From Gemmatimonadales bacterium (lineage in GTDB: Bacteria; Gemmatimonadota; Gemmatimonadetes; Gemmatimonadales; GWC2-71-9): a stretch of 51,064 bases of DNA. The translations under genes and the position numbers were made by a program. Below the pieces are notes generated by a model that made no database searches, had not been told where the DNA came from, and saw nothing but the letters and a program-made list of their open reading frames with translations. Where the stretch lies: assembly GCA_035712665.1 (NCBI GenBank), contig DASTAN010000151.1:1-51064 (forward strand), written 5' to 3'. Positions 3 to 50,909 of the stretch are shown here, one piece after another. Positions within the stretch are counted from its first letter, which is position 1. Every line of letters starts with the position of its first letter.

Positions 3-152
3 TGGGTCTTCGAGACGCGCTTCACCCTGCCGCTCGTCCCGATGAGCGCGCTCGCCCTCGGCCTCGCGGCGCTGACGACCGTGGTCGGGCTGTGGAGTTC
101 GCAGGATGTACTGGACAGACCACCACTGGAAGTGCTGAGTCGCGAAGGGTGA
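3..152 (+). CDS. C-terminal fragment of an FtsX/MacB-like ABC transporter permease (gene starts upstream of window)
   Basis: Frame open from window edge to TGA 150-152 reads WVFETRFTLPLVPMSALALGLAALTTVVGLWSSQDVLDRPPLEVLSREG: a last TM helix plus a ...PPLEVL(R/S)xE tail typical of FtsX-family permeases. Absent from the ORF track because it has no start codon in the window. Confidence 0.45.
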   Translation, partial: WVFETRFTLPLVPMSALALGLAALTTVVGLWSSQDVLDRPPLEVLSREG

Positions 153-234
153 GGAGTGAGGGGCAAGGGGGCCACCCCCCACCCCCCTCACCCCTCACCC
201 CTCACCCCTCACCTTTTCACCATTCACCGTTCAC
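147..234. repeat. Heptamer-array hairpin R1
   Basis: GGGTGAGGAGTGAGGGG (147-164) faces CCCCTCA x4 (184-213), followed by a TTCACC(A/G) tract to 234. The unit length is 7 nt. Confidence 0.85.
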
Positions 235-251
235 TCTCCGGAGGTCCCGCC

Positions 252-2750
252 TTGCTTCAATCCCGTTCTGCTGCCGCCCTTGTCGCGGCCCTGCTCTCCC
301 TCGGCGCCTGTGCGAAGGGTGCCAAGCCCGCGCCGACGCCGGCGCCTGCCGCGGGCGGTGCCGCAAACGGCGCGGCGCGCCCTGCCGGGGCCCCGGGCGC
401 CGGTGGTGCCGCCGCCGCCCGCACCGGCCCGAAGGCCTACAAGGACGTGATCACCGACAAGGCGAAGTCGGATGAGGGGGCGATCACGATCCACCAGGTC
501 GGCGACAAGTGGTACTACGAGATCCCGCGCGCGATGCTGGGCCGCGAGTTCCTCGTCGTCTCGCGCATCGCCAAGACCGCCGGCGGCCTCGGCTACGGCG
601 GCGAGGAGAACAACACCGACGTCGTGCGGTTCGAGCGCGTCGGCGACAAGGTCTACCTGCGGCAGGTGTCGTACAGCACGGTGGCCGATTCGACCAAGCC
701 GATCGCGCAGGCGGTGAAGAACTCGAACTTCGAGCCGATCGTCTTCGGCTTCGACGTGCAGGCGTACGGCAAGGACTCGAGCGCCGTCGTCGAGGTCGGG
801 CCGCTGCTCACCACCGACGTCGCGATGCTTGGCCTCCCGGCCGGCGCGAAGACGCAGTACCAGGTCCGCCGCCTCGATCCGGCGCGCACCTTCATCTCGG
901 CGATCCGCTCGTACCCGCGGAATGTCGAGCATCGCGTCGTGATGACGTACGACGCCGGGCGCCCGCCGTCGAACGCCTCGACCGGCTCGATCTCGCTCGA
1001 GATGAACCACTCGATGCTGCTGCTCCCGGAGACGCCGATGATGGCGCGCCTCTATGACGAGCGCGTCGGCTACTTCGGGCTCTCGCAGACCGACTACGGC
1101 CGCGAGGAGCAGCGCACGATCGCCCGGCGCTACATCTCGCGCTGGCGCCTCGAGCCGAAGGACACCGCCGCCTTCCTCCGCGGCGAGCTCGTCGAGCCGG
1201 TGAAGCCGATCATCTACTACATCGACCCGGCGACGCCCGAGAAGTGGCGTCCGTACCTGATCCAGGGCGTGAACGACTGGCAGAAGGCGTTCGAGGCCGC
1301 CGGCTTCAAGAACGCCATCATCGGCAAGCTGCCGCCGACGCCCGAGGAGGATCCGGAGTTCTCGACCGAGGACGCGCGCTACAGCGTGATCCGCTACTTC
1401 GCGTCGGACATCGAGAACGCGTACGGGCCGAGCATCACCGACCCGCGCTCGGGCGAGATCCTCGAGTCGCACATCGGCTGGTATCACAACGTGATGAACC
1501 TGCTCCGGAACTGGTACCTGGTGCAGACCGCCGCGATCAACCCGAAGGCGCGCGGCGTGCAGTTCGATGACGCGGTGATGGGCGAGCTCATCCGCTTCGT
1601 CTCGGCGCACGAGGTCGGCCACACCCTCGGCCTGCCGCACAACATGAAGGCGTCGTCGTCCTATCCGGTCGACTCGCTCCGGAGCCCGACCTTCACGAAG
1701 ACGATGGGCACCGCGCCGTCGATCATGGACTACGCGCGCTTCAACTACGTCGCGCAGCCGGGCGATGGCGACGTCGGCCTGATGCCGCAGGTCGGGCCGT
1801 ACGACAAGTACAGCATCATGTGGGGCTACCGCCCGATCCTCGACGCGAAGACCCCGGACGACGAGAAGCCGACGCTCGACAAGTGGATCCGCGACCGCGC
1901 CGGCGACCCGATGTACCGCTTCGGCGACCCGTCGGGGACCGACCCGGGCTCGCAGACCGAGGACCTCGGCGATGACGGCGTCAAGGCGAGCAGCTACGGC
2001 ATCGCGAACCTGAAGCGCATCATGCCGAAGCTCCTCGAGTACAGCTACGAGCCGCGCGCCGACTTCGCGCAGCTGCGCGAGATGTACGGCCAGGTCGCGG
2101 GACAGTGGAACCGCTACATGGGCCACGTCCTCACGATCGTCGGCGGCATCGACTGGACCCGCAAGAACACCGACCAGCCGGGTGCGGCCTACACCGCGAT
2201 CCCGCGCGAGCGGCAGAAGGCGGCGGTCGCGTTCCTCACCGAGCAGGCGCTCCAGACGCCGGCCTGGATGATGGAGGCGCCGATCCTCGAGCGCATCGGC
2301 GTGCAGGGCTCGACCGAGCGCGTGAAGGGCTTCATGGTGAGCGTCCTCAACCGGCTCCTCGACCCGTCGCGGATGGCGCGCCTGGCCGAGCTGTCGGCGG
2401 TGGCCGACGGCGGGTACCCGCTGCCCGAGTACCTGGCCGACGTGCGGAACGGGGTCTGGACCGAGCTCGGCAACGGCCGCAACCCGGACCTCTACCGTCG
2501 GGCGCTGCAGCGCGCGTGGGTCGAGCGGATGGAGTACCTGATGACCGAGGAGCTGCCGCCGATCCCGGCGCAGTTCGCCGGCCGCATCGCCCCGAACCCC
2601 GACGTGTCGCTGAGCGACATCCGGCCGCTCGCGCGTCGCGAGCTGGAGACGGTGCGGGCGCGCCTCCGCACCGCGGGCGGCGACGCGGTGACCCGCGCGC
2701 ACTACGCGGATCTCGTGGCCCGGATCACGCAGGTGCTGGAGCCGAAGTGA
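252..2750 (+). CDS. Secreted/lipoprotein zinc-dependent metalloprotease (DUF4953/DUF5117-type)
   Basis: ORF 156-2750. Contains the HEVGHTLGLPHN zinc motif. I prefer in-frame TTG 252, preceded by GGAGG (240-244), giving the signal peptide MLQSRSAAALVAALLSLGAC. The residues encoded by 156-251 are just translated heptamer repeat (PHPSPLTPH). Confidence 0.85.
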   Translation: MLQSRSAAALVAALLSLGACAKGAKPAPTPAPAAGGAANGAARPAGAPGAGGAAAARTGPKAYKDVITDKAKSDEGAITIHQVGDKWYYEIPRAMLGREFLVVSRIAKTAGGLGYGGEENNTDVVRFERVGDKVYLRQVSYSTVADSTKPIAQAVKNSNFEPIVFGFDVQAYGKDSSAVVEVGPLLTTDVAMLGLPAGAKTQYQVRRLDPARTFISAIRSYPRNVEHRVVMTYDAGRPPSNASTGSISLEMNHSMLLLPETPMMARLYDERVGYFGLSQTDYGREEQRTIARRYISRWRLEPKDTAAFLRGELVEPVKPIIYYIDPATPEKWRPYLIQGVNDWQKAFEAAGFKNAIIGKLPPTPEEDPEFSTEDARYSVIRYFASDIENAYGPSITDPRSGEILESHIGWYHNVMNLLRNWYLVQTAAINPKARGVQFDDAVMGELIRFVSAHEVGHTLGLPHNMKASSSYPVDSLRSPTFTKTMGTAPSIMDYARFNYVAQPGDGDVGLMPQVGPYDKYSIMWGYRPILDAKTPDDEKPTLDKWIRDRAGDPMYRFGDPSGTDPGSQTEDLGDDGVKASSYGIANLKRIMPKLLEYSYEPRADFAQLREMYGQVAGQWNRYMGHVLTIVGGIDWTRKNTDQPGAAYTAIPRERQKAAVAFLTEQALQTPAWMMEAPILERIGVQGSTERVKGFMVSVLNRLLDPSRMARLAELSAVADGGYPLPEYLADVRNGVWTELGNGRNPDLYRRALQRAWVERMEYLMTEELPPIPAQFAGRIAPNPDVSLSDIRPLARRELETVRARLRTAGGDAVTRAHYADLVARITQVLEPK

Positions 2751-2754
2751 CGTA

Positions 2755-2892
2755 GGGGCCGCAGGCCGTAAGCCGCAGGCCTCAGGGGAGTGAACAGTGA
2801 ACGGTGAATGGTGAACGGGACTCCTGTTCACCGTTCACCGTTCACCGTTTACCGCCCCGCCCCCCTCACCCCTCTCCCCTCACCCCTCACCT
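2755..2892. repeat. Heptamer-array hairpin R2
   Basis: GCCGCAG/GCCGTAA units run 2755-2786. GTGAACA GTGAACG GTGAATG GTGAACG (2790-2818) faces TGTTCAC CGTTCAC CGTTCAC CGTTTAC (2825-2852), followed by a CCCCTCA tract to 2892. It lies between the metalloprotease stop and the fabI start. Confidence 0.9.
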
Positions 2893-2930
2893 GCCTATCT
2901 TTTCGGCCAGACTTCAACCGAGGGCAGGCC

Positions 2931-3842
2931 ATGCTGGGCATCGATCTCCGGGGCAAGCGGGCGTTCGTGGCGGGTGTCGCCGACGATGGCGGGTTCGGCT
3001 TCGCGATCGCCAAGGCGCTGGCCGAGGCGGGGGCGACGGTCTGCGTCGGGACCTGGCCGCCGGCGATGGGGATCTTCGAGAACCTCCTCGAGCGCGGCAA
3101 GATCGCCGACTCGCTCAAGTTCGCCGACGGGAGCTCGATGGCGTTCGAGCGCGTCTACCCGCTCGATGCGGCCTTCGACACCCTCGAGGATGCCCCGGCC
3201 GAGATCCGCGAGAACAAGCGCTACCGCGAGCGCGGCGACTTCTCGATCGCCGGCGTAGCAGAGCGGCTCCGGGCCGATTTCGGTGACCAGCCGCTCGACA
3301 TCCTGGTGCACTCGCTCGCCAACGGCCCCGAGGTGAAGAAGCCGCTGCTCGAGACCTCGCGGCGCGGCTATCTCGAGGCCGTCTCGGTGTCAGCCTACTC
3401 GAACGTCGCGCTGCTGCGCACGCTCGGGCCGATGATGCGCCCGGGCGGGGTGGTGCTGTCGCTGACCTACATGGCCGGCGAGCGGGTGATTCCGGGCTAC
3501 GGTGGCGGGATGTCGAGCGCGAAGGCGGCGCTCGAGGCGGATACGCGCACGTTGGCCTACGAGGCGGGGCGGAAGTGGGGCATCCGCGTGAACACCATCT
3601 CGGCGGGACCGTACGCCTCGCGCGCGGCGAGCGCCATCGGCTTCATCGACACGATGATCCGCTACTGCAAGACCAACAGTCCGCTCACGCGCGACTTCGA
3701 GGCGACCGACGTCGGCCACACGGCGGCGTTCCTCGCTTCGCCGCTGGCCGCGGCGATCACCGGCAGCACGGTGTACGTCGACAACGGCTACCACGCGATG
3801 GGGATGGCGGTCGAGCCTCCCGCGCCGCCGGCGGCCGAGTGA
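2931..3842 (+). CDS. fabI: Enoyl-[acyl-carrier-protein] reductase (NADH), FabI
   Basis: Within ORF 2808-3842. The N-terminus from ATG 2931 is [35 protein letters not shown] (SDR glycine-rich fold). Also has ...[26 protein letters not shown] and ...RVNTISAGP, typical of FabI. Confidence 0.88.
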
Positions 3843-4207
3843 CGGCGCGGCTCGCGGCCACGCTCGGCGCGCTCTTCGGGGGGCTCGCGGTGGCGCTCGG
3901 CGCGTTCGGCGCGCACGCGCTCCGCGCACGGCTCGAGGCACGCGACCTCGAGATCTTCGAGACCGCGGTGCGCTACCAGATGTATCACGCGCTGGCGCTG
4001 TTCGCGGCCGCGTGGCTCCTCGACCGGGGCATCGCGCAGGCGAGCGGGGCGGCGTGGGGGTTCACGATCGGCACGCTGATCTTCTCGGGATCGCTCTACC
4101 TGATGGTCGCCACCGGGATGCGCTGGCTGGGGGCCGTCACCCCGATCGGCGGCGTCGCGATGATCGTCGGGTGGTGCATCCTCGTGGTCGCAGCGCGGCG
4201 GCTGTAG
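3839..4207 (+). CDS. DUF423 (YgdD-like) small inner-membrane protein
   Basis: GTG 3839 overlaps the fabI TGA (GTGA). The 122-aa product has four hydrophobic helices (LGAFGAHAL..., YQMYHALAL...), the DUF423 signature. The upstream part of ORF 3575-4207 overlaps fabI out of frame. Confidence 0.75.
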
Positions 4208-4214
4208 CCGCTGC

Positions 4215-4297
4215 GGAGATCGGCGATCGGCGATCCGAGATCGGAGGTCCCGTGTCGCCTGTCCCCTCTGATCTCCGATCTCTGATCTCGGATCTCC
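4215..4297. repeat. Heptamer-array hairpin R3
   Basis: GGAGATCGGCGATCGGCGATCCGAGATCGGAG (4215-4246) faces CTCTGATCTCCGATCTCTGATCTCGGATCTCC (4266-4297). Confidence 0.9.
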
Positions 4298-4880: not shown

Positions 4881-4987
4881 TCTGAGATCGGAGCGTAAGG
4901 GACAAGGGACCTGGGACAAGCGACAACCGTCATCCCGAGCAACGCGAGGGATCGCGGGATGCCGAACACTCCGATCTCGGATCTCCG
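4862..4987. repeat. Heptamer-array inverted repeat R4 with internal GGGACAA-type units and a REP-like core
   Basis: GGAGATCCGAGATCAGTGATCTGAGATCGGAG (4862-4893) faces CTCCGATCTCGGATCTCCG (4969-4987). The spacer carries TAAGGGA CAAGGGA CCTGGGA units and GTCATCCCGAGCAACGCGAGGGATC. The left arm encodes the last residues of the YkgJ-like gene. Confidence 0.85.
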
Positions 4988-5005
4988 CTCTCACTTCTCC
5001 AAACA

Positions 5006-5034
5006 GAAACGGCTCCCTCATCGGGAGCCGTTTC
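5006..5034 (-). terminator. Rho-independent terminator downstream of the PEP-CTERM gene (bidirectional hairpin)
   Basis: Perfect 12-bp stem GAAACGGCTCCC / GGGAGCCGTTTC with a 5-nt loop. On the minus strand it is followed by TGTTTGG. It lies 22 nt after the stop at 5057. Confidence 0.7.
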
Positions 5035-5056
5035 GATTGTCAGGCAACGGGCCTGC

Positions 5057-14699: not shown

Positions 14700-14873
14700 C
14701 AACATCGCAGTCGAGTAGAGATGTGTCAGGTTAGCCCGAAATGACCCGCTTGGGAACCCGTGTGACCGGATCGGGACCACCTGGGTGCGGGCTGCAGGAG
14801 TACCGCTTGTCACGGGGTGTCGCGATCTTTTGCCGGTCAATCGTTAGGCATCTTCCGACACGGAGCCGTCGCC

Positions 14874-15188
14874 ATGGACCGCATTCCCCACCAGATCGAC
14901 CTCGCCACTGCCAAGACGATGATCGCGGCCGCCAAGGCGAAGACCCCGACCGCGCCGAATGCGTGGTGGTTCGACCGCGAGATTCTCGACGTGATTCTCG
15001 CCCAGAAGGACGTGACCGGCCTGCGGATCTACATCGGCGCCACGCAGGAGGGGGCGATGCAGCCGATCCTCGTCGGGACGACCGGCGAGGGGGCGACGGG
15101 GTCGGATCTCGCCGAGGGAGTGATCGGGGAGGAAGCGCTGCCGTGCCCGACCTTCTGTGACAAGAACTCGCCGCTGGGACCGGCGTGA
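14874..15188 (+). CDS. Hypothetical small protein (104 aa)
   Basis: Within ORF 14817-15188. ATG 14874 follows GGAG. Codon usage is good (GC3-rich). The C-terminal CPTFC pair is the only motif. Its stop overlaps the next gene's start (GTGA). Confidence 0.55.
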   Translation: MDRIPHQIDLATAKTMIAAAKAKTPTAPNAWWFDREILDVILAQKDVTGLRIYIGATQEGAMQPILVGTTGEGATGSDLAEGVIGEEALPCPTFCDKNSPLGPA

Positions 15189-15862
15189 CGCTCGAGCTGG
15201 AGGCCCTTCTGACCTCGGCGCGGGCCCCGGCGATGGCGATGACCGTCGCGAGCATCGCAACGGTGGTCGCGATCGGCGATCCGCGTCATCCCCGCCTTCG
15301 CCAGTGGCGTTGGTTGTGGCTCTTCCTTGTCCTGAACGCCGTGTTCAACAGCCGGTCGTTTCTGCCGCAGGAGTGGGCGGCGCCGTTCGGCAGGATCACC
15401 ACGAGCGTCGGACGTCTCCTGTACATGCCGCCCCTCCTGCTCGGACTGGCATCCATCATTGCGCACGGAGGGTACCGGCGTTATGCGCGGATCGGCGCGT
15501 TCGTCCTCGCCATGCAGCTGGTGGCGGCGCTGTTCGTGGGTGGCATCCTGCCGACGGGGGTGCCCATCCTCCGAACCGTTATCTCGACAGTGATCATCCT
15601 GGCAGTGGCCGCGCCTGCGGTCATCGCGAGGCTTCCGCGTGTCCGCGGCAGCATCCTCCAGGATCCGCCGATGATGGCCGCCATCGCGGCACTGTTGGCC
15701 TACGGGTCGCCGCTACTGTTCTCGCCAGCAGCGGCCGGACGAGGAACGGCAACCCCGGAGTACATCACGCTGCTGTGGCTCCGCAATCTCAGCTGGATCC
15801 TTGCCTATGCCATCTGGTGGTACGCCTTCCTCAAGGCACGCCGGGAGGAGCGCCCGGCCTGA
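15185..15862 (+). CDS. Hypothetical polytopic membrane protein (about 6 TM)
   Basis: 225 aa with repeated hydrophobic helices (WLWLFLVLNAVF, LLYMPPLLLGLASII, AFVLAMQLVAALFVGGIL, VISTVIILAVAAPAVI, MMAAIAALLAYGSPLLF, LSWILAYAIWWYAFL). It is translationally coupled to 14874-15188 and sits 23 nt before the kinase gene. Confidence 0.6.
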   Translation: MTLELEALLTSARAPAMAMTVASIATVVAIGDPRHPRLRQWRWLWLFLVLNAVFNSRSFLPQEWAAPFGRITTSVGRLLYMPPLLLGLASIIAHGGYRRYARIGAFVLAMQLVAALFVGGILPTGVPILRTVISTVIILAVAAPAVIARLPRVRGSILQDPPMMAAIAALLAYGSPLLFSPAAAGRGTATPEYITLLWLRNLSWILAYAIWWYAFLKARREERPA

Positions 15863-15885: not shown

Positions 15886-16590
15886 ATGGACGATCTCTTC
15901 CTCGTCGGGCTCCTCTCGCTCGTTGGCGGCGCGATTCTCGTCGCGACGCTGGTCGGGGTGATGGTGCTGCATCAGCGTCGCCTGGTCGCCTCGGCGCGCC
16001 GCTGGGGCCGCAAGCTGCTCGCGGCGCAGGACGCCGAGCGGGCCCGGATCGCCGCCGACCTGCACGACGACGTGGTGCAGCGGCTGACGCACGCGGGAAT
16101 GCTCGCCGCACGCGGCGAGGGCGACGCCGCCCACGCCACGATCGACACGATCGCCGCGGACCTGCGCTCGCTCGCGCGGGAGCTCCATCCTGCCGCCATT
16201 GACCGGGTGACGCTGGCGCAAGGACTCGAATCCCTGGTGCGCGAGGTGGCGACGGCGGCCGAGCTGCAGGTGCGGACGCGCATCGAGCCGATCACGGAGC
16301 CATCGCTCGAGGTGAAGCGCGCGGCCTATCGGATGGTGCAGGAAGCCCTCCGCAACGCCGTCAATCACGCCGGCGCGAGCGAACTCGAGCTGGTGGTGGT
16401 GCCGAGCGGCGCCGGGGTGTTGGTCGAGCTGCGCGATGACGGTCAGGGATTCGACGTCGGCGCGGCGGAAGCCGAATCGTTCGGCCTCCGCACCATGCGC
16501 GAGCGGGTGGAGACCGTCGGTGGGCGCTTCAGCATCACCAGCGCCGACGGCGAGGGGACCGCGATCAGCGCGCTGTTCGGCGGGGGTTAA
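15886..16590 (+). CDS. Sensor histidine kinase, HisKA_3/HATPase_c (NarX/LiaS-type), single N-terminal TM, no sensor domain
   Basis: Contains LAAQDAERARIAADLHDDVVQRL (HisKA_3 H-box), ...EALRNAVNHAGA... (N-box) and ...DDGQGF...GLRTMRERV...GG. No response regulator is seen in the window. Confidence 0.82.
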   Translation: MDDLFLVGLLSLVGGAILVATLVGVMVLHQRRLVASARRWGRKLLAAQDAERARIAADLHDDVVQRLTHAGMLAARGEGDAAHATIDTIAADLRSLARELHPAAIDRVTLAQGLESLVREVATAAELQVRTRIEPITEPSLEVKRAAYRMVQEALRNAVNHAGASELELVVVPSGAGVLVELRDDGQGFDVGAAEAESFGLRTMRERVETVGGRFSITSADGEGTAISALFGGG

Positions 16591-17567
16591 CCCCCGAACT
16601 CCCCCGCGAGAGCAGTGCGCGTCCGCTCCAGCAGCTTGATCGTGCGGCGGATCCCTTCGGGCTCGGGCAGCCGCTGCCCCTCGTACTCGACGCCGATCCA
16701 GCCGCGGAACCCCGCCCCGAGCACCAGCCGCAGCATCCGCGCGTAGTCGATGTCGACCTCCTCGCCGTCGTCACGGAAGTCGTGGCTCTTGGCGCTCACC
16801 GCCGCCGCCATCGGCATCATCTCCTCGACGCCGCGATAGGCATCGTACCGCTCGGTGGACGATACGGTGAAGTTGCCGAAATCCGGAAGGGTGCCGAGGA
16901 GCGGATGATCCGCGCGCTTGAGCACCTCCACCAGCCACGACGCGCGCGACGAGTAGCCGCCGTGGTTCTCGACCACCACCCGGAGCTTGAACTCTTCCGC
17001 CCGCTCGGCCAGCCGCCGGAGCCCGTCGGCCGCGAGCTTCGCCTGCTCCTCCGGCGTGCCCCGACTCTGCGCGTTGACGCGGATCATCGCGCAGCCAAGT
17101 CGTGACGCACAGCGCAGCCACCGGACGTGGTTCTCGATCGCCCTGGCGCGCGCCGCCTCGTCGGGATCGCCGAGCGCCCCCTCGAGGTCGCACATGATGA
17201 GGTGGTGGTAGACCCCCTCGCCCTTGGCACGGCGGTCGAGTTCGCCGAGCCACTTCGCGTCATCGGCCTTGCCGTACATCATCGTGTTGACGTACTCGAC
17301 CGCCTCGAGCCCGTACTCGCGTCGCGCAATGACCGGGAAATCGACCGGGAGTGCCGCCCCCTGCCAGAGCCGGTCGGGGTCGCTCCTGAAGAGCGCTTCC
17401 CGCTCGCTCCACGGCAGCGACAGTGCCTTCCCGAAGAAGGTGCGATGCAGCGACCACTGCGCGAGCGAGATGCGGAACAACGGTGCCTCCCGCGCGGCGA
17501 GACGATGCGGCATGGCCGCGGCCGCGGCGGCGGCGGCCATGAATTCGCGACGTGACAGGGACATCAT
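16587..17567 (-). CDS. Sugar phosphate isomerase/epimerase (xylose-isomerase-like TIM barrel) with twin-arginine signal
   Basis: Only the last 326 codons of ORF 16587-18272 are used. ATG 17567 ([18 protein letters not shown]) overlaps the upstream stop (ATGA). Shows TIM-barrel features ...IRVNAQ..., VVVENHGGY, GWIGVEYEG. Confidence 0.75.
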   Translation of the reverse strand: MMSLSRREFMAAAAAAAAMPHRLAAREAPLFRISLAQWSLHRTFFGKALSLPWSEREALFRSDPDRLWQGAALPVDFPVIARREYGLEAVEYVNTMMYGKADDAKWLGELDRRAKGEGVYHHLIMCDLEGALGDPDEAARARAIENHVRWLRCASRLGCAMIRVNAQSRGTPEEQAKLAADGLRRLAERAEEFKLRVVVENHGGYSSRASWLVEVLKRADHPLLGTLPDFGNFTVSSTERYDAYRGVEEMMPMAAAVSAKSHDFRDDGEEVDIDYARMLRLVLGAGFRGWIGVEYEGQRLPEPEGIRRTIKLLERTRTALAGEFGG

Positions 17568-19156
17568 CCCTCCGGGGAGACGGGCCGCACGGGAACGCCG
17601 GCACGATCGGCCGTGCGCTCGCCGTGCTCGAGTGCGAGCACGCCATTGACCGCGACGGCCACGATGCCGACCGGGTACCGGAACGGATCGTCGTAGGTCG
17701 CGCGATCGTTGACGGTGGCAGCATCGAGGACGACGATATCGGCGGGCGCGCCCACCGCGATCCGTCCGCGATCGAGCCGCAGCCGCGACGCGGGGAGCCC
17801 GCTCATCTTGTGGATCGCCGAGGCGAGCGAGAGCGTGCCGCGCTCGCGCACATAGCGGCCGAGGACGCGCGGGAACGAGCCGATGCCGCGCGGGTGCGGC
17901 GCACCGCGCCGCGTCGGGCCATCGATCGCGAACGCGCCGCCATCGCTGCAGACCATCCCGAGCCGATGCGCGAGGATGCGCTCGAGGTTCGCCTCGCTCA
18001 TCGCGAAACCGACCATCCCGACACTGCCGCGATTGCGGGTGATGAGTCCGACCGCCGCCTCGTACGGATCCTCGTTGCGGGCGGCGGCCCACGTGCCGAG
18101 ACGCTTCCCCTCGACGTCGCTGTCCTGCGCCTCGCGCACCGACGTGACCTGCACGTTGTCCCAGCCGCCGATCAGCTCGACCTTGGCGAGGGTCGCCTCG
18201 CGGATCCGTGCCGCGGTGGTCGAATCCTCGAGCCGTGCCAGGAAGGCATCGGTGCCGCCGTCGCGGCTCCACACCGGGAAGAGGTTGGTGAGCCCGGTCT
18301 GGTACGCGAGGTAGGGATAGCGGTCGAAGGCGATGCGCACGCCGCGGCGCTCGGCGGCCTCGATCGTCGTGAACACCTCATCGAGCACGCCCCAGTTGCG
18401 CGGCCCCTGGGTCTTGAGGTGCGAGATCTGCACGCCGCATCCCGCCCGCTCGCCGACGGCGATCGTCTCGCGGATCGCGTCGAGAAGGCGATCGTCCTCG
18501 TTCCGCATGTGGGAGGCGTACACGAGACCGCGGGTCGCCAACGGACGGGCCAGGGCGACGAGCTCGTCCGGACTCGCGAAGGCACCGGGGGTGTACTCGA
18601 GCCCTGACGACGCGCCGCACGCGCCCCCCGCGAGGGCCCGCTCGACGAGCTGCACCATCCGCGCGAGCTCATCCGGCGTGGCGGGGCGATCGTCCGCGCC
18701 CACGACCCCGCCGCGCACGGTGCCGAGGCCGACCATCGTCGCCACGTTCACGGCGGGGCGGATCGTCTCGAGCTTGGCGAAGTAGTCGCCGACCTCCAGC
18801 CGCGAGCCGCCATCCTGCCCCGCCACGATCGTGGTGATCCCCTGGCGGATGACCGACTCGGCCCGCGGATCGCTCTCGAGCGAGCCGTCGCCGTGCGAGT
18901 GGATGTCGACGAACCCTGGCGCCACGACGAGCCCACGCGCCTCGACCTCCCGGGTGCCTCGGCCAAGGGACGGGGCGAGGGCGGCGATGCGACCGCTCCG
19001 GACACCGACATCCACGGCGCGCGCCGCGCTGCCGAGGCCGTCGTGCACCGACCCGCCACGGATGACGAGGTCGAAGTCGGCCCGTCGCGCGTGCACGAAC
19101 GGGGCAGCCGGGAGAAGCGCCGCCGAGGCGGCCACGAAGTCACGACGCGAGAGCAC
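17564..19156 (-). CDS. N-acyl-D-amino-acid deacylase (D-aminoacylase), amidohydrolase superfamily, Tat signal
   Basis: GTG start giving [15 protein letters not shown]. Contains [10 protein letters not shown], ...YASHMRNE... and ...ISHLK..., typical of D-aminoacylases. Confidence 0.85.
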
Positions 19157-19459: not shown

Positions 19460-19669
19460 ATGCGTATCACCGGCACGGTCAAGTGGTTCAACGACGCCAA
19501 GGGCTTCGGTTTCATCACCCCGGAGAACGGCTCGAAGGATTGCTTCGTCCACCATTCGGCCATCCAGGGCAGCGGCTTCAAGACGCTGGCCGAGGGTGAG
19601 CGGGTTGAGTTCGACATGGTCCAGGGCCAGAAGGGCCCGGCGGCCGAGAACGTCGCCCGCCTCGGCTGA
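19460..19669 (+). CDS. cspA: Cold-shock protein (CspA family)
   Basis: [65 protein letters not shown] carries the RNP1 (KGFGFI) and RNP2 (VFVHH-like) motifs. An AGGAG SD lies upstream. It is embedded in spurious ORF 18893-19669. Confidence 0.96.
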
Positions 19670-19711
19670 AGTCAGCCGGAGCACAATCGCGAGCTGCGGC
19701 TCGTGACCAAG

Positions 19712-22221: not shown

Positions 22222-22494
22222 CAGCCTGTAGACAATCCGCACCGTCACCGCGTCGCCGTCACCCTTGGTGCCGCGGACGTGCTTCGGCACGGCGAGCAAG
22301 GTGCGGACCCCCTTGTCGCGCCAGGTGCTGGTCTCCCACGTGTGACCGTCCACGGTCGCCGTGACCGGCGTTCGACCCCAGCCCTCGGTCGTGGTCGGCG
22401 CATGCTCCTCGGGGATCGTCGCGAAGTGCCAGCCGCCCTTCCCCGCCGTGCGGAAGAGCACGCTGATGAACTCGCCGGAGTCGTACTGCATCAC
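22216..22494 (-). CDS. DUF1905-domain protein
   Basis: 92 aa. GKGGWHFATIPEE...VTATVDGHTWETS...LAVPKHVRGTKGDGDAVTVRI matches the DUF1905 pattern. Confidence 0.7.
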   Translation of the reverse strand: MMQYDSGEFISVLFRTAGKGGWHFATIPEEHAPTTTEGWGRTPVTATVDGHTWETSTWRDKGVRTLLAVPKHVRGTKGDGDAVTVRIVYRLM

Positions 22495-22784
22495 CCACGC
22501 CCCGACCGCTCGACCGCGCGCAGGTAACGATTCGCGACGGTTTCGAGTCGGTCATCCTCGCGTTCGATCGCCTCGTCGCGGAGCTGCGTCACCTCGGCCA
22601 CGAGGTGCGGCGCACCCCACGCCGTGCCGGTGGCCGACTCGGCCGACGCGATCTCGCCGATGCGCGCCGCCTCGAGCAGCGCGCGCGCCACCGCCAGCGC
22701 ATATCCGGGATCATCGCTCGACGGCAGCGGCCAGCGCGGCCCGGGGCGATCGCCGTCGTCCTCCTTCACGAAGGCGCGGGACAT
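22491..22784 (-). CDS. Hypothetical protein (97 aa)
   Basis: C-terminal part of ORF 22491-23240 starting at ATG 22784 (MSRAFVKEDDGDRPGPRWPLP...). Its start overlaps the upstream stop and its stop overlaps the DUF1905 start, so it is embedded in an operon. No motif recognised. Confidence 0.5.
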   Translation of the reverse strand: MSRAFVKEDDGDRPGPRWPLPSSDDPGYALAVARALLEAARIGEIASAESATGTAWGAPHLVAEVTQLRDEAIEREDDRLETVANRYLRAVERSGRG

Positions 22785-23431
22785 CAGCGCGCGACCAGCC
22801 GGCGATCGAGATAGCGTCCCCACGGGCCCAGGAGCCAGAGCGCGAGTGCACTCCACGCCACGGCTGTTGCCGAGGGCGGCGGCGGGGCCCACGGCTGGCT
22901 GACCCACATCGCGAGGAAGAGGAGCAACAGCGCCATGAACGCGATGACGCCTGCCCGCGTGGTGAAGCGGAACCCGCGCTGGTGTGCCCACACGGCTCCG
23001 AGCAGCAGGCCGCCTTCCAGGACGAAGGTTGCCCCGCGGCTGTTCCACACGCCGAGCCCGACCAGTGGCCCGCCGTTCCAGAGCGGCAGGTCGGGGCGGT
23101 GCACGATGGCGTCGAGTACCCAGTGGCTGGCGACCAGGGCACCAGTCATCAGCGCCGCGCGTGGGCCGAGGCCGAACCGTCGCGTGAGCATCGCGACCAG
23201 CACGCTCCAGCCGAGCACCGCGATGACGCCGTGGGTCCACGGGTAGTGCACGAACGCGAGGTTGGTGAAGGCCGTGTCGCCGGGATGCACCTCGACGCGC
23301 TCAACGCCGGCGAGGAGGAGGATCGGCCAGATCAGGTCGAGCCAGAACGCCGCCAGCAGCGCGACCCAGAGCGGGACAGCCGGTTCGACGCGCCGGGCGA
23401 CGAGGGCAGCACCCAGGTGTCCGATGAGCAT
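22784..23431 (-). CDS. Membrane-bound metal-dependent hydrolase-like protein (YdjM/DUF457-like)
   Basis: 215 aa from ATG 23431 (MLIGHLGAALVARR...). It is polytopic, with conserved His/Asp positions (HPGD, HYPWTHG, SHWVLDAIVH). The rest of ORF 22784-24346 overlaps the PBP gene out of frame. Confidence 0.55.
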   Translation of the reverse strand: MLIGHLGAALVARRVEPAVPLWVALLAAFWLDLIWPILLLAGVERVEVHPGDTAFTNLAFVHYPWTHGVIAVLGWSVLVAMLTRRFGLGPRAALMTGALVASHWVLDAIVHRPDLPLWNGGPLVGLGVWNSRGATFVLEGGLLLGAVWAHQRGFRFTTRAGVIAFMALLLLFLAMWVSQPWAPPPPSATAVAWSALALWLLGPWGRYLDRRLVAR

Positions 23432-23475
23432 CCTCGATCTCCTCTCGGCGCGTGGGGCGACGCGCCGGCAGGAGA

Positions 23476-25626
23476 CTACCTGAGATCGGCGATCGCCGCC
23501 AGTCGGTCGCGCAGCGCCTCCTTGAGCGCGCGGCCGGCGGCGCGCCGCAGCGCCTCGATCGCCTGCTCCGCGGCCTCGTCGCCGCTCCAGTCGGGCATCT
23601 CGAAGTGGAGACAGCCGCCCCCGTCCGTCGGCGCAGTGCCCTCGAGGAAGTACTCCTCGCGGCCGCACGGCTCCAGCCACGTCCCGGGGCCGTAGCCTTC
23701 CTCGAGCCCCTCGGGCATCGCGAAGGCGTCGTCGCCCTCGACCCCGATCTCGCGCAGGAACCGCGCGACGATCGGCACGGCGACTGCCCCGCCGGAACGA
23801 CCGATCGGCGCGCCATCGTCGTGGCCAACCCAGAGCCCGACGACGAGCGTCGGCGTGTATGCCAGGAACCAGCCGTCGCGAAAGCCGTTCGAGGTTCCGG
23901 TCTTCCCCGCCACGCCATCGCTGTCGATCTCCTCCCCGAGTCGTCGCGCCGTACCGTGATCCACCACGCCCTGCAGCGCGGAGGTCACGAGCCAGGTGAC
24001 GGCCGGATCGGCCACCCGCCGAGTCCGCGGTGCGTCGGCCGCGACGGTGACGCCGCCGTAGCTGCGTCGGCCAAGCAGCAGTCGCGGCTCGGCGAGCACC
24101 CCGCCGGTCGCGAACACGCCGTACGCGCGGGCGAGTTCCAGCGGCGTCACCTCGGCGCTGCCCAGCGCGAGACTCGGCACGCGCGGCATCGGGCTCGCGA
24201 TGCCCACCCGTTGCGCCGTGCTGGCGATCCGCTCGGGACCCAACTGGAGACCGATGCGCGCGAAGGGGAGGTTGAGCGACTGCTCGAGCGCCTCGCGCAG
24301 CGTCACCTCCCCGCGAAACGACTCGTCGTAGTTGGTCGGCTCCCACGCCGCCCCGCGCCCGGTCTCGACGCGCAGCGGCGCATCCTCGAGCGTCGACGCG
24401 AGCGTATAGGCAGGGGCGTCGTCGCGTGAAGGCCGCTCGAGCGCCGCGAGGGCGACGATCGGCTTGAAGGCGCTCCCCGGCTGGCGTCGCGCCTGCACCG
24501 CTCGGTTGAACTGCGACCGGCCGTAGTCCCGACCGCCGACCATCGCGAGCACGTCCCCGGTCCGCGGGTCGAGCGCCACCAACGCCGCTTCCGCGCGCGG
24601 GAGCCCGAGGCGTGCCAGTCCATCGCGCACCGCCCGCTCCGCCGCACGCTGCAGCCCCGGGTCGAGCGTGGTGTAGATCGCCACGCCCCGCGAGCCGGCC
24701 TGCGGACGACCGCTGCTGCGCACGTGGTCGACGAAGTGCCGCGCCTCGAGCGTGCGGAGGGGCGTCACGCGTCGCGGGATCGGCGCGCGTCGCGCACGCG
24801 CCGCGTCGTCCGGGTCGAGACGACCCTGCTCGACCATCAGTCGCAGCACAAGATCGCGCCGCGCCCGCGCATTCTCGGGATGCCGCGACGGGACGTGACG
24901 ATTCGGGGCGTGGATCATCCCGGCGAGCAGCGCCGCATCGGCCACCGACAGCTCCGTCACCGAGCGGCCGAGATGGTAGCGCGCGGCCGCCCCGACGCCG
25001 TGAATCGGTCGGCCACCATCCTGCCCGAGATACACTTCGTTGAGATAGGCCTCGAGGATGGCGCGCTTGTCGTGGCGCGCCTCGAGCACCAGCGCCATCG
25101 CGGCCTCGCGGGCCTTGCGGAGCGGGGTGCGATCGGCCGAAAGAAAGAGGTTCTTCGCGAGCTGCTGCGTGATCGTCGAGCCGCCCTCCGCAATGCCGCC
25201 CGCGCGCACGTTGGCGACGAAGGCCCCCGCGATGCGGCGCGGGTCGAGGCCGTGATGGGAGAGGAAGCGCTGGTCCTCGATCGCCAGGACAGCATCGACC
25301 AGCACCTCGGGCATGTCGTCGAGCGCCACGACGAGCCGTGCCTCGAGCGGGGCACCGTCGAGCGAACCGATCGGTACCGGACGCACCGGCTCCCCGTCGT
25401 CACGCCACGCGACAGGACGCGTGTAGAGGGCACTCGGGAGTCGCGTTTCCGGCGCGCCCAGCTCGGCCCGGACGAACGCCTCGACCCAGATCACCACGGA
25501 GCCGGCGACCACCAGCCCCACCGTCCAGCGACGGATCCGGCGCCACGGCCAGCGGCTGCGGAAGGCCGCCGCGGCCTGCCGCGCCGTGGCCCACCGATCC
25601 TGTCGGGGTGTCTCCTCGGGAGTCAT
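23476..25626 (-). CDS. Class A penicillin-binding protein (glycosyltransferase GT51 + transpeptidase; PBP1A/1C-like)
   Basis: N-terminal TM anchor. GT51 motifs AIEDQRFLSHHGLD, GGSTITQQLAKN and RKAREA. Transpeptidase motifs SAFKP and KTGTS. Confidence 0.9.
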   Translation of the reverse strand: MTPEETPRQDRWATARQAAAAFRSRWPWRRIRRWTVGLVVAGSVVIWVEAFVRAELGAPETRLPSALYTRPVAWRDDGEPVRPVPIGSLDGAPLEARLVVALDDMPEVLVDAVLAIEDQRFLSHHGLDPRRIAGAFVANVRAGGIAEGGSTITQQLAKNLFLSADRTPLRKAREAAMALVLEARHDKRAILEAYLNEVYLGQDGGRPIHGVGAAARYHLGRSVTELSVADAALLAGMIHAPNRHVPSRHPENARARRDLVLRLMVEQGRLDPDDAARARRAPIPRRVTPLRTLEARHFVDHVRSSGRPQAGSRGVAIYTTLDPGLQRAAERAVRDGLARLGLPRAEAALVALDPRTGDVLAMVGGRDYGRSQFNRAVQARRQPGSAFKPIVALAALERPSRDDAPAYTLASTLEDAPLRVETGRGAAWEPTNYDESFRGEVTLREALEQSLNLPFARIGLQLGPERIASTAQRVGIASPMPRVPSLALGSAEVTPLELARAYGVFATGGVLAEPRLLLGRRSYGGVTVAADAPRTRRVADPAVTWLVTSALQGVVDHGTARRLGEEIDSDGVAGKTGTSNGFRDGWFLAYTPTLVVGLWVGHDDGAPIGRSGGAVAVPIVARFLREIGVEGDDAFAMPEGLEEGYGPGTWLEPCGREEYFLEGTAPTDGGGCLHFEMPDWSGDEAAEQAIEALRRAAGRALKEALRDRLAAIADLR

Positions 25627-43224: not shown

Positions 43225-43300
43225 GTCGTGTGGCCAATTGCGCATGGCCGCAGGGTGATGCAATTTCGAGCATCTCTCCTTCCTTGACCAGCCCATCCTC

Positions 43301-46116: not shown

Positions 46117-46122
46117 CCCTCG

Positions 46123-48190: not shown

Positions 48191-50506
<2,316 letters not shown>

Positions 50507-50508
50507 GC

Positions 50509-50609
50509 CGTGAGTCGTGAGTCGTGAGTCGTGCGTCGTGAGTGAACGGTGAACGGGAGCGATCCTGTTCACCGTTCGCTTTTGGCGGTGCACCGCCTCA
50601 CCCCTCACC
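50509..50609. repeat. Composite heptamer region R14 (GTGAGTC units, GTGAACG hairpin, CCCCTCA units)
   Basis: GTGAGTC x3 plus GTGCGTC (50510-50537), the GTGAACGGTGAACGGG / CCTGTTCACCGTTCGC hairpin, then CCTCACCCCTCACC (50596-50609), which overlaps the tautomerase stop. Confidence 0.9.
50542..50584 (+). terminator. Rho-independent terminator of katG, built from GTGAACG heptamers
   Basis: GTGAACGGTGAACGGG-AGCGAT-CCTGTTCACCGTTCGC followed by TTTT (50580-50583). Confidence 0.75.
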
Positions 50610-50813
50610 TGTTGCCCCCTGCTGGGCCCGCCACTCATCGGTCAGCATCCCCGCGAAGCCCCAGTCCTCGTCGGCGATCTCCTGGATGACAATGTGCGTG
50701 TGCTCCGGCTTCTTGCCGAGGTGCCGCACGAGGCTGTCGGTGATGTCGCGCACCAGCGCGGCCTTCTGGGCACGGGTGGCCCCGCGAGTGATCTGGACAT
50801 TGACGTAGGGCAC
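50598..50813 (-). CDS. 4-oxalocrotonate tautomerase-family protein
   Basis: MPYVNVQITRGATRAQKAALVRDITDSLVRHLGKKPEHTHIVIQEI... has the N-terminal catalytic Pro1 and the beta-alpha-beta pattern of the tautomerase superfamily. Confidence 0.85.
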   Translation of the reverse strand: MPYVNVQITRGATRAQKAALVRDITDSLVRHLGKKPEHTHIVIQEIADEDWGFAGMLTDEWRAQQGATGEG

Positions 50814-50827
50814 AGAGACCTCGACAA

Positions 50828-50909
50828 AGGGTGAAGGGTGAAGGGTGGAGGGTGGAGAGCGAAGCGTGAAGGGTGAACGGCAATGAGCGGCAGCTGGTTC
50901 CTGTTCACC
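50828..50909. repeat. Heptamer tract R15 (GGGTGAA/GGGTGGA units, then GTGAACG...TGTTCAC)
   Basis: AGGGTGAAGGGTGAAGGGTGGAGGGTGGAGAGCGAAGCGTGAAGGGTGAACGG ... CCTGTTCACC. Confidence 0.8.

Follow-up and report, generated by a model that had tools for sequence, protein, structure and literature searches.

Dense heptanucleotide repeat arrays in the intergenic DNA of an uncultured Gemmatimonadales clade

Most intergenic spacers in a 51,064-nucleotide stretch of the chromosome of an uncultured soil Gemmatimonadales bacterium (70% GC; hereafter the window) carry tandem arrays of 7-nt units. Such arrays are confined to one clade, made up of relatives at about 70% protein identity or above. We read them, with a probability of about 0.55, as heptanucleotide simple-sequence arrays of the STRR or long-SSR type that have expanded over most intergenic DNA of this clade and are remodelled in place. 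They are best read as something other than copies of a fixed mobile element.

Periodicity, placement and units of the arrays

The initial annotation proposed at least 15 intergenic heptamer sites. Tandem Repeats Finder, run on the window, called period-7 arrays at all 15, in agreement with a reading of the sequence. A strict lag-7 scan of the window gave 15 runs (615 nt), against none for periods 4, 5 and 8 to 12 and one for period 6; among the periods compared, the enrichment is limited to period 7. With a relaxed scan we obtained 19 arrays, covering 687 nt or 1.35% of the window, where 100 block shuffles gave a mean of 0.82 and a maximum of 5. Array density is about three per 10 kb.

Placement was judged on a gene map built from GC3 and Pfam matches. 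On this map all arrays are intergenic or reach no further into a gene than its stop codon or final few codons. Of some 21 spacers at least 40 nt long, about 15 bear arrays, and all three orientation classes first described are represented: 4 of 4 convergent, 7 of 11 co-directional and 3-4 of 5-6 divergent spacers. The spacers of a peptide locus (42.6-48.3 kb), already described as lacking arrays, have none by Tandem Repeats Finder or the relaxed scan. Neighbouring genes show no common functional theme in their Pfam matches, and neither an Rfam match nor a tRNA was found.

A typical array has four to five units. Several units recur across sites (CCCCTCA at five sites, GTGAAC at five, GAGATC at six and GTGAGTC at four), and at least ten related heptamers are present in this DNA. 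Many share a G-N-G-A core (GTGA, GCGA, GAGA; TCNC on the opposite strand), which TAGGCCT, GCCGCAG, GACGATA and CGACCAT lack. Several unit families do exist, as originally listed, but they are not independent: most units differ from one another by one or two substitutions (GTGAGGG, GTGAAGG, GTGAACG, GCGAACA, GTGAGTC and others), and families swap at one site between close strains.

Hairpins and polarity at individual sites

Facing inverted arrays, said from the outset to predominate and to form hairpins, are found at 9-10 of the 15 sites, with stems of 20-35 bp; about half of the arrays stand alone, without a facing arm. Fold energies range from -33 to -68 kcal/mol and z-scores from -3.9 to -10.2. 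Orientation is nearly invariant: the purine-rich arm lies 5' and the pyrimidine-rich arm 3' in 25 of 27 pairs found algorithmically, and in all of the roughly 22 genuine hairpins. Such strict polarity could mean function rather than filter. At four gene ends, the stop codon lies inside the first array unit. Neither this polarity, nor the restriction to one clade, nor the concerted change of the two arms had been mentioned in the initial annotation.

The first hairpin (144-234; -48 kcal/mol, z -6.0) opposes a purine-rich arm, GGGTGAGG/AGTGAGG (144-171), to a pyrimidine-rich arm of four to six CCCCTCA units (172-216) followed by three TTCACC (216-234); its first unit includes the TGA stop codon (150-152) of the upstream permease gene. 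At 2757-2892, four GCCGCAG-type units (2757-2786) precede a hairpin of four GTGAACG (2788-2818) and four GTTCACC (2823-2855; -52.6 kcal/mol, z -10.2) and then four CCCCTCA units (2860-2892), with a TATCTT (2896) 4 nt beyond their end. The hairpin at 4213-4297 (-46.9 kcal/mol, z -3.9) joins five GGAGATC/GGCGATC units to 4.6 GATCTCC units and is one of several whose stems contain uncompensated mismatches, here at the variable unit positions. At 4862-4992, four AAGGGAC units (4897-4926) lie between outer arms of GAGATC type (4862-4893) and CTCCGAT (4969-4992), the site overlapping the last five codons and the stop codon (4878-4880) of a CxxCxxCC-domain gene. Three CCGATCG units (6080-6100) and four CTCACNA units (6138-6170; GTGAGTC type on the minus strand, containing the COX4 stop codon at 6163-6165) enclose an ordinary GC hairpin with an A/T tract (6105-6133).

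The strongest fold (-68.3 kcal/mol, z -9.1) is at 10932-11013, in the divergent spacer between an M15 peptidase gene (minus strand) and greA (plus strand), where four GGTGAGG/GGTAAGG units face four CCCCTCA units and a TATCTT follows at 11015. That arrays reach promoter regions, as had been proposed, is also seen at two other sites. Four GGAGGGT (19174-19200), facing five degenerate CCCTTCA/CCCTCCA units (19225-19257), lie directly 5' of the csp transcript start: csp RNA contigs begin at about 19301, right after an array region extending over 19171-19290. At 32511-32564 (plus strand), 4.6 CCCCTCA/CCCCTGA units are followed by CACCATTGACCGTTCAC, and the last units supply the TTGACC of a promoter-like TTGACC-16-TATCTT.

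The array at 21612-21722 (about 15 units, TAGGCCT and then TGAGCCC/TGAGGCC), which begins 4 nt past the stop codon of an S15 peptidase gene, folds on itself because its unit is nearly self-complementary (AGGCCT; -61.8 kcal/mol, z -5.6). Four GTGAGTC units on the minus strand (22193-22221) occupy an entire 25-nt convergent spacer, the first containing the DUF1905 stop codon (22216-22218). A hairpin of GGAGAC/GCGATC/GGAGATC against CTCCGAT/CGCCGAT (33807-33879; -46.4 kcal/mol, z -5.3) lies in the convergent spacer of a radical-SAM gene (plus strand) and an M28 peptidase gene (minus strand). It shares 91% identity over 56 nt, loop included, with the hairpin at 35850-35905. The latter belongs to a site (35841-35905; -58.6 kcal/mol, z -8.6) that begins at the stop codon of a GNAT gene and in which GGCGATC, GGCGATC and GGAGATC face their exact mirror, unit variants included.

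A single array of eight AGTCGTG units (40434-40492; CGACTCA on the minus strand) stops 3 nt short of the ATG (40433) of a luciferase-like monooxygenase gene. Past the katG stop codon, the site at 50504-50609 has five CGTGAGT units, a hairpin of two GTGAACG against GTTCACC/GTTCGC followed by TTTT (50542-50588; -32.7 kcal/mol, z -6.8), and two CCTCACC units (50591-50609) overlapping the last codons of a 4-OT tautomerase gene (50598-50813, minus strand). Upstream of the start of that gene, seven AAGGGTG/GAGGGTG units (50825-50909) are followed by GTGAACGG ... CCTGTTCACC.

Clade restriction, variation between strains and competing readings

In relatives sharing 70% protein identity or more, 192 kb of loci hold 56 arrays. 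None was found in 13 other Gemmatimonadota loci of equal GC (172 kb), and outgroup loci hold 16 in 1,186 kb. Sister Gemmatimonadota share the gene order yet are without arrays.

Within the clade the arrays are hypervariable. In the orthologous spacers FtsX> <lipase, OmpA> <AI-2E and DUF4953> adh, hairpin units differ by species, or a plain GC hairpin is present alone. The related sequence L179 shares 91.7% identity with the window; it retains one hairpin family and carries a different one right after the same M28 stop codon. Strains about 98% identical have a different family after the same stop codon (seen at single contig ends only), a pattern closer to replacement than to gradual drift. L001 and L083 carry GGAACGGCCCCCTCGCGAGGGGGCCGTTTCAC at a site occupied by GTGAAC.../GTTCAC... 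arrays in the window, L002, L004 and L084. The comparison of copy number between strains suggested initially reveals polymorphism: a near-identical strain is 7 nt shorter within 50231-50809, and GTGAAC units number four in the window and three in L002. Most telling is the pair L083 and L097, 99.26% identical over 10,024 nt. In a 705-nt alignment, 22 of 25 differing columns fall inside one 80-nt hairpin whose flanks are 100% identical, about 50-fold more difference inside than outside. There, GAAGCGA/TCGCTTC has taken the place of GAAGAGA/TCTCTTC across several units in both arms; rare variants occupy mirrored positions, both sides having changed in 5 of 25 pairs.

These data bear first on the possibility, tentative but the best placed of the alternatives, that the arrays are selected cis-elements, general transcript-end devices of the clade whose structure is conserved while the sequence drifts. 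They might act as REP/BIME-like stabilisers of mRNA 3' ends, as factor-dependent or U-tract-independent bidirectional terminators, or as insulators between transcription units. Orthologous spacers keep hairpins despite unit replacement, with compensatory change in both arms; in some species a heptamer hairpin stands exactly at the ordinary terminator hairpin of relatives. The filling of all four convergent spacers of the window, the constant polarity (G-rich arm 5', C/U-rich arm 3') and z-scores down to -10 point the same way. However, arrays also occur in divergent spacers and upstream of transcript starts, where there is nothing to terminate, about half are unpaired, several stems hold uncompensated unit mismatches (as at 4213-4297), and sister Gemmatimonadota of the same gene order do without them. 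Furthermore, no array hairpin in the window passes a stem-plus-T-run scan, in keeping with the earlier view that the arrays are not simply terminators. The hairpin then given as an example of a terminator, 50542-50584, is only plausible as one: it precedes CUUUUGG and was not flagged by the scan.

Spread as REPIN- or MITE-like mobile elements appears improbable. Each hairpin would then be a non-autonomous element dependent on a transposase (RAYT-type or other) from elsewhere in the genome, each family being one element lineage. The inverted-pair architecture is REPIN-like, one site holds different families in close strains, and identical units recur at many sites and reach high copy numbers in metagenomes, where arrays with these units are 10-50 times over-represented in contig depth. 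Such recurrence and depth are not an obvious outcome of a purely local origin; dispersal or a unit bias is needed. Yet loops, ends and lengths differ between sites, matches are limited to runs of the 7-nt unit, and we saw neither target-site duplications nor terminal motifs. Unit number varies, probably by slippage, and variants change in concert and in place between 100% identical flanks. Whole-element matches amount to two pairs; the members of each lie about 2-2.6 kb from one another on either side of one gene, an arrangement suggestive of local copying. All but a few ORFs of the window were submitted to Pfam and gave a match, and no submitted ORF matched a transposase family.

Somewhat more doubtful still is the view that the arrays bind a protein peculiar to the clade, one that recognises DNA or RNA in a register of 7 nt. 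A parallel would be the post-transcriptional regulator that has been suggested for the TAACTGA repeats of Beggiatoaceae (PMC4679880). The G-N-G-A core of many units, the usual four to five units, the constant orientation relative to genes and the one-clade distribution would suit such a protein. Against it, at least four units lack the core, neighbouring genes have no functional theme in common, and units are freely replaced at one site, a turnover that would defeat any sequence-specific reader.

G-quadruplex regulatory repeats, like the GGGAATC arrays of Xanthomonas and GGGGAYT arrays of Nostoc, are very unlikely here. Arrays of GGGGTGA, AAGGGTG and GGAGGGT do have at least four G3-4 tracts with loops of 3-4 nt, CCCCTCA arrays have almost exactly four units, and a parallel is described (PMC4692102); but most families (GTGAACG, GAGATCG, GTGAGTC, TAGGCCT, GAGAGAA, GACGATA) are unable to form G4, and the complementary C-rich arm usually facing the G-rich arm would compete with G4 folding.

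An assembly artefact of low-complexity reads, raised as a possibility in the initial annotation, has a negligible chance of being correct: metagenome contigs often break within arrays (ends of L002, L085 and L179) and De Bruijn contigs have tangled joints there, but independent assemblies from other runs cross the arrays exactly (in an unrelated public run, a contig of 2,509 nt covers 2300-4150 with no gap, and a 572-nt contig covers 50231-50809 with one mismatch and exactly seven letters missing), and NCBI, ENA, JGI and Logan MAGs and contigs from different pipelines carry them, including contigs of 0.45-1.1 Mb.

Proposed origin and relation to known repeats

For simple-sequence arrays remodelled in place, the patterns of variation suggest a mechanism in several steps. 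Slipped-strand replication in a 7-nt register would make and remodel the arrays, units being gained or lost and variants spreading along an array; polymerase slippage is the origin proposed for heptamer long SSRs (Mrazek 2007, as reported in PMC4679880 and PMC4692102). Nucleation may have taken place at or around existing GC-rich hairpins, namely terminator-type inverted repeats; this step draws on the GGAACGGCCCCCTCGCGAGGGGGCCGTTTCAC of L001 and L083, which stands where relatives have arrays. Complementarity of the arms, even for rare variants, would be kept by quasipalindrome correction, in which replication switches template between the inverted repeats of one molecule and so copies one arm onto the other; selection for pairing may assist. 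Now and then, a whole hairpin would be copied into a neighbouring spacer. Growth would be halted by selection at coding sequences, -10 elements and ribosome-binding sites, which would explain why arrays abut or supply stop codons. The surviving polarity may reflect the same filter: the purine-rich arm, offering GTG, GAGG and TGA/TAG in all three frames, would be tolerated after gene ends, and the pyrimidine-rich arm, with no start codon or SD-like run, before gene starts. The proposed mechanism does not account for the register of seven.

In E. coli genetics, a quasipalindrome template switch is a replication error at an imperfect inverted repeat: one arm serves as template for the other, and the match between them improves. 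Such mutagenesis would yield mirrored unit variants as found here. It is known, however, as a single-site mutational hotspot, whereas we propose a genome-wide upkeep of arrays; to our knowledge, no genome-wide process of this kind maintaining repeat arrays has been described.

The analogues named at first, STRR and REP/BIME elements, are reasonable: the former are dispersed intergenic 7-nt tandems, the latter intergenic hairpins and inverted pairs. The STRR of heterocystous cyanobacteria (Calothrix, Nostoc/Anabaena) similarly comprise several families per genome in many dispersed intergenic copies, and we know of no function for them. They belong to another phylum, at about 41% GC against 70% here, and have other units; in the Gemmatimonadales, at about three arrays per 10 kb, the facing pair of fixed purine-5'/pyrimidine-3' polarity dominates. 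We know of no description of concerted arm change in STRR. REP/BIME elements and REPINs of Enterobacteria and Pseudomonas also lie at 3' ends and in convergent spacers, often as inverted pairs, and their types can differ between orthologous spacers; a likely RNA effect, 3'-end protection, would match. REPs, however, are conserved 20-40-nt imperfect palindromes with no internal 7-nt periodicity, spread by RAYT transposases, whereas Gemmatimonadales sites have only the 7-nt unit in common.

The initial annotation knew of no multi-family heptamer system in a high-GC non-cyanobacterial genome; heptamers are in fact described in Burkholderia, Xanthomonas, actinobacteria and Geobacter. Heptanucleotide long SSRs are the commonest class in many genomes, including the first three (Mrazek 2007, as reported in PMC4679880 and PMC4692102). 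As those accounts present them, these and the Xanthomonas repeats resemble our arrays in being an over-represented, intergenic class of about four units at high GC, with length and sequence varying widely at the same gene pairs between close species and some inverted pairs. In Xanthomonas, GGGAATC arrays number about 185 and include inverted ones (Rehm et al. 2015, PMC4692102), and the Nostoc GGGGAYT arrays are partly inverted repeats (PMC4692102). The Xanthomonas arrays, however, form essentially one family (GGGNATC) at about 0.4 per 10 kb of a 5-Mb genome; the Gemmatimonadales have at least ten related units at about 8 times that density, mostly as hairpin pairs and mostly not G4-capable. 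Abundant, mostly intergenic and lineage-restricted arrays of two to six heptamers are also known from Beggiatoaceae (TAACTGA; MacGregor 2015, PMC4679880) and Geobacter metallireducens (49 elements of 4 x GGGACCG, and 5 x MTYCTGA; PMC2700814). These consist of one or two fixed units, almost exclusively direct, with no hairpin pairs; Beggiatoa TAACTGA, located just 5' of start codons, has one indirect set among 170 (PMC4679880).

Since heptamer repeats are known in Xanthomonas, Burkholderia, Geobacter and cyanobacteria, we claim no new system. The Gemmatimonadales arrays represent a repeat type that cyanobacteria and Xanthomonas also have, in an unusually dense and fast-evolving form; their 20-35-bp RNA hairpins may affect transcript ends in this clade, through REP/BIME-like 3'-end protection or insulation.

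Heptamer arrays in the intergenic spacers

Tandem 7-nt units had been described at 15 or more intergenic sites in the initial annotation, and Tandem Repeats Finder recovers period-7 arrays at all 15 sites that it lists. A strict lag-7 autocorrelation scan of the window yields 15 runs, and none at periods 4, 5 or 8-12. Relaxing the scan gives 19 period-7 arrays, covering 1.35% of the window, and no array at periods 4, 5, 8, 10 or 11; the same relaxed scan of 100 composition-preserving block shuffles gives 0.82 arrays (maximum 5). On a gene map based on third-position GC, Pfam matches and synteny, every array lies between genes, with coding overlap limited to a stop codon or a gene's final few codons. 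Of about 21 spacers of at least 40 nt, about 15 contain arrays, and all spacer classes are represented (4/4 convergent, 7/11 co-directional and 3-4 of 5-6 divergent). At least seven unit types are present in 51 kb. At 9 or 10 of the 15 sites an array stands opposite its reverse complement, and these facing-array hairpins have predicted folding energies between -33 and -68 kcal/mol (z-scores -3.9 to -10.2). The observation of heptamer arrays is confirmed; the interpretation first attached to it is supported in part.

The window has a GC content of 70% along its entire length and carries ordinary chromosomal genes: a DUF4953 met-zincin, a FabI-like reductase, a cytochrome oxidase operon, greA, a DeaD helicase, a cold-shock protein gene (csp), PBP1A, katG and several peptidases. 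Its closest protein relatives are MAGs labelled Gemmatimonadales, several with the same gene order, and near-identical DNA is found in soil, mine-tailings, sludge and pond metagenomes. Some gene models deserve comment. The long ORF 16587..18272 (-) overlaps an amidohydrolase ORF at 17564..19156 (-), and Pfam places a TAT signal at its residues 239-254, with an AP_endonuc_2 domain downstream of the signal; this xylose-isomerase-like gene therefore probably begins close to 17558, the portion of the ORF ahead of that point being spurious. ORFs 14817..15188, 15185..15862 and 22361..23695 have no Pfam match, and GC3 is coding-like over 14817-15862 and 22552-23475.

Arrays are absent from the internal spacers of the locus at 40583-48177, unlike most spacers of the window, as stated initially for 42.6-48.3 kb. 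This locus comprises an AAA_16/Trans_reg_C regulator (-), a small ORF at 42670-42936, a GAF-HlyD protein, a stretch at 45143-46116 and a PqqD-peptidase M50-HlyD protein. In appearance this is a locus for peptide export or maturation, and its array-free spacers would fit a recent acquisition.

The suspicion that the arrays might be assembly artefacts is refuted by contigs from independent runs, which we compared over the arrays at 2300-4150, 18900-21612 and 49300-50830. A 2.5-kb contig from an unrelated run covers 2300-4150 without a gap, and a second contig of 572 nt matches 50231-50809 with one mismatch and exactly 7 letters missing, a polymorphism of unit number between near-identical strains. 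Contig depth at array bins rises 10-50-fold in four metagenomes, which indicates that same-unit arrays are highly multi-copy there. MAG or metagenome contigs of the clade often terminate within heptamer arrays, as in the comparison loci L002 (1-60), L085 (6832-6873) and L179 (5600-5675). Such contig ends imply that the arrays fragment short-read assemblies, and heptamer arrays are probably under-represented in MAGs.

Distribution among relatives and concerted change of hairpin arms

The orthologous region was collected from 80 GTDB species genomes, several MAGs, a metagenome scan and a Logan contig; in the metagenome scan, based on the TRAHYADA pattern, 5 of 80 loci were orthologous and the rest were mostly unrelated genes. 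Period-7 arrays are limited to relatives with about 70% identity or more in the DUF4953 protein. These relatives carry 56 arrays in 192 kb scanned, against none in 172 kb from 13 other Gemmatimonadota loci of equal GC, which makes the feature specific to one lineage. Bacteroidota/Rhodothermales loci hold 16 arrays in 1,186 kb. Periods 5, 8, 10 and 11 are near zero in all groups, and this result, together with the group counts at equal GC, excludes base composition as the cause. Heptamer arrays also occur on unrelated metagenome contigs: L165 (8385-8454; 45% GC) has four GAATGAT facing three ATCATTC, likewise with purines 5' and pyrimidines 3', and L143 (1207-1241) and L099 (9891-9918) have four to five CTCCCGG units.

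At one and the same orthologous spacer, the units that make up the hairpin differ from species to species. Between the convergent FtsX and lipase genes we find GACGATA/TATCGTC in L001, GAGAGAA/TTCTCTC in L083 and AGGTGAA/TTTCACC in L085, while L084 and L087 have a short GC hairpin only. The convergent OmpA and AI-2E genes are separated in every species by an ordinary terminator, followed by GCGAACA, GTGAGTC, TAGGTCA or GCGAAG arrays facing their complements. Downstream of DUF4953 and before the adh gene, the unit is GTGAACG in the window, L002 and L004, GGGGTGA in L086 and L123, GTGACCA in L161, GACGTGA in L084 and GAGAGAA in L087; in L001 and L083 a plain hairpin, GGAACGGCCCCCTCGCGAGGGGGCCGTTTCAC, takes the place of the arrays, and its tail resembles a GTTTCAC/GTTCACC unit. 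Unit number also varies, with three GTGAAC units in L002 versus four in the window. At closer range, L179 shares 91.7% identity with the window across 5.7 kb and, upstream of the gene for the M28 peptidase, retains the hairpin of the GAGATC family. After the M28 stop codon, which is conserved, it carries a GTGACAC/GGGACAA hairpin versus the GGAGATC hairpin of the window, divergence beginning immediately 3' of the stop. Single contig ends from other runs hint at yet further families behind the DUF4953 and S15 peptidase genes in strains of about 98% identity, at repeats where de Bruijn contigs tangle.

The two arms of a hairpin change together. Loci L083 and L097 share 99.26% identity across 10,024 nt. 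A 705-nt alignment of the two has 25 differing columns, of which 22 lie within an 80-nt hairpin, a divergence about 50 times the background, and the flanks are 100% identical. Several units of the 5' arm change from GAAGAGA to GAAGCGA, the matching units of the 3' arm change from TCTCTTC to TCGCTTC, and each locus has a rare variant unit at mirrored positions of both arms. RNAalifold finds 5 of 25 pairs altered on both sides with pairing kept. In the window, the two arms of the hairpin at 35841-35905 mirror each other perfectly, unit variants included; the counterpart of this hairpin in L179 has one compensated and one uncompensated unit change. It is implausible that genomes whose flanks are identical acquired six or more compensating point mutations independently. 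Spread of a variant along the array by slippage, combined with template-switch copying between arms, would account for the L083/L097 pattern through known replication errors.

Polarity, gene boundaries and transcription signals

In all of some 22 genuine facing pairs from the window and relatives, the purine-rich arm is 5' and the pyrimidine-rich arm 3'. Algorithmic pairing gives 25 purine-5' cases out of 27, the other two being chance GATC matches within a gene. This order is invariant under reverse complementation and is hence a real asymmetry. About 12 of 13 single arrays obey the same geometry, which amounts to GTGA-type arrays lying 3' of stop codons and TCAC-type arrays 5' of start codons. 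Four genes end on the TGA of a first unit, which supplies their stop codon, and a fifth has its last five codons inside the array. Since 7 mod 3 = 1, three TGA-containing units put stops in all reading frames; pyrimidine arms contain neither an NTG start codon nor an SD-like run. Stop codons are a candidate cause of the polarity, confounded by their being purine-rich themselves, and the polarity is equally expected if arrays grew from the A-tract/T-tract flanks of bidirectional terminators.

The arrays had been judged not to be simply terminators, and a terminator scan (GC-rich stem-loop plus T run) indeed lists no array hairpin. The array at 50542-50588, proposed as one that doubles as a terminator, comes nearest with four T, but it too is absent from the list. 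Ordinary terminators are found next to arrays, at the csp 3' end, at 6105-6133 and at 5000-5035. Consensus scans of the window for sigma-70 promoters and terminators stay near shuffle expectation and serve as negative evidence only.

Metatranscriptome contigs offer good coverage for csp only (19461..19670, +), which has a GC hairpin with a T run of the ordinary type downstream. In two runs the csp contigs start at 19301, in one case directly behind an adapter, which points to a 5' UTR some 160 nt long. They begin right behind the array at 19171-19290, over which these contigs give no RNA depth, in agreement with the earlier placement of this array in a promoter region. Two 37-nt contigs from two runs match the GTGAGTC array. 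G-U asymmetry, that is, a hairpin pairing better on the transcribed strand, has mixed signs across sites. TATCTT is present five times in the window versus 1.3 expected (2896-2901, 11015-11020, 11981-11986, 19760-19765 and 32574-32579), always on the + strand and 11-129 nt ahead of the start of a + strand gene; three of the five copies lie just 3' of a pyrimidine arm. One copy is preceded by TTGACC at a 16-nt spacing (32552-32579), and TTATCTTT precedes the adh gene also in L002, L084, L086, L123 and L161. TATCTT is a candidate for a promoter element of the -10 type in this lineage.

Known repeat classes and possible origins

Reports of heptanucleotide repeats in scattered bacteria go back to 1990; to our knowledge, the origin of these repeats and their 7-nt register are still unexplained. 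STRR and GGGGAYT arrays are described in cyanobacteria. STRR1-3 in the strict sense are defined by the units of the cyanobacterial families and by a heterocystous cyanobacterial host, and the window units (GTGAGGG, GTGAACG, GAGATCG and others), in a Gemmatimonadales host, do not fit them. The window arrays have the traits of heptanucleotide long SSRs and STRR-type arrays: head-to-tail 7-nt units beyond chance length (19 versus 0.82), a dispersed and mostly non-coding distribution with several unit families per genome, and unit numbers that are polymorphic between strains. As Mrazek 2007 is quoted in PMC4679880 and PMC4692102, heptanucleotide long SSRs are the commonest class in many bacteria, and polymerase slippage was proposed for them. 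Xanthomonas has about 185 GGGAATC arrays per genome, of about four units, variable between species and sometimes inverted (PMC4692102); TAACTGA repeats are described in Beggiatoaceae (PMC4679880) and elements of 4 x GGGACCG in Geobacter (PMC2700814). The belief that no high-GC non-cyanobacterial parallel had been described is thus contradicted. Compared with these systems, the present one differs in its density (about three arrays per 10 kb, most spacers occupied), its many inter-convertible units, mostly paired arms and strict polarity, and in the direct evidence of concerted arm evolution and a sharp phylogenetic boundary. Our literature search for such repeats in Gemmatimonadota found no link.

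Other classes fit less well. Rfam 15 gives no match at gathering score in the window, which also contains no tRNA or tmRNA gene. A CRISPR array is rejected, the 7-nt units being contiguous as opposed to direct repeats of 23-47 nt with unique spacers of similar length, and so is a MITE, as the 15 sites share no ends and variant alleles have identical flanks without target-site duplication. GGGGTGA, AAGGGTG and GGAGGGT arrays have the at least four units with a G3-4 tract expected of G-quadruplex heptamer repeats of the Xanthomonas/Nostoc type, by sequence only; GTGAACG, GAGATCG, GTGAGTC, TAGGCCT and GCCGCAG arrays do not.

We favor, with a probability of roughly 55%, an origin of these STRR-like arrays by slippage in place and arm-to-arm copying around hairpins, with constraints from coding and translation acting as a filter. 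Slippage would spread unit variants along an array, template switching across the inverted repeat would copy one arm onto the other, and arrays would settle around hairpins where coding and translation tolerate them. The main rival, a selected REP-like role of the hairpins, is possible but less probable. The arrays form inverted doublets that fold as hairpins, as REP/BIME/REPIN elements do (about 22 in the window and relatives); a 20-40-nt imperfect palindrome of constant full-length sequence does not recur across the sites. A dedicated, clade-specific process producing the arrays, as opposed to passive slippage, appears unlikely. Less likely again are mobile REPIN-like elements. Compared all against all, the 15 sites have only unit runs in common, without shared ends or loops, and none of the ORFs submitted to Pfam from the 51-kb window is a transposase, such as a cognate RAYT (TnpA-REP) gene would encode. 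Two pairs are excepted, 33823-33877 with 35850-35905 (loop included) and 177-214 with 2855-2892, each pair flanking one gene about 2-2.6 kb apart (M28 peptidase and DUF4953 met-zincin); this arrangement suggests occasional local copying between neighboring spacers. That the arrays exist for a binding protein is the least probable of these views, with several units alternating at one orthologous spacer.

Slippage and arm copying remain our preferred reading. Were a dedicated process at work, it may take the form of a replication/repair enzyme variant or a nucleic-acid-binding protein of 7-nt register that writes and symmetrizes purine/pyrimidine-polar palindromes. The hairpins would then have taken over the terminator or insulator job in this lineage, as a self-renewing, sequence-agnostic class of intergenic punctuation. 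The clade is an extreme comparative case, with arrays in about 70% of spacers, strict polarity, a sharp phylogenetic on/off boundary at the same GC and gene order, and measurable concerted arm evolution. These features make it testable which replication/repair gene or binding protein differs from the array-free sisters. In practice, metagenome assemblies of abundant soil Gemmatimonadales break at the arrays, which also rewrite stop codons and gene 3' ends and lie on promoters, affecting annotation and possibly gene expression.
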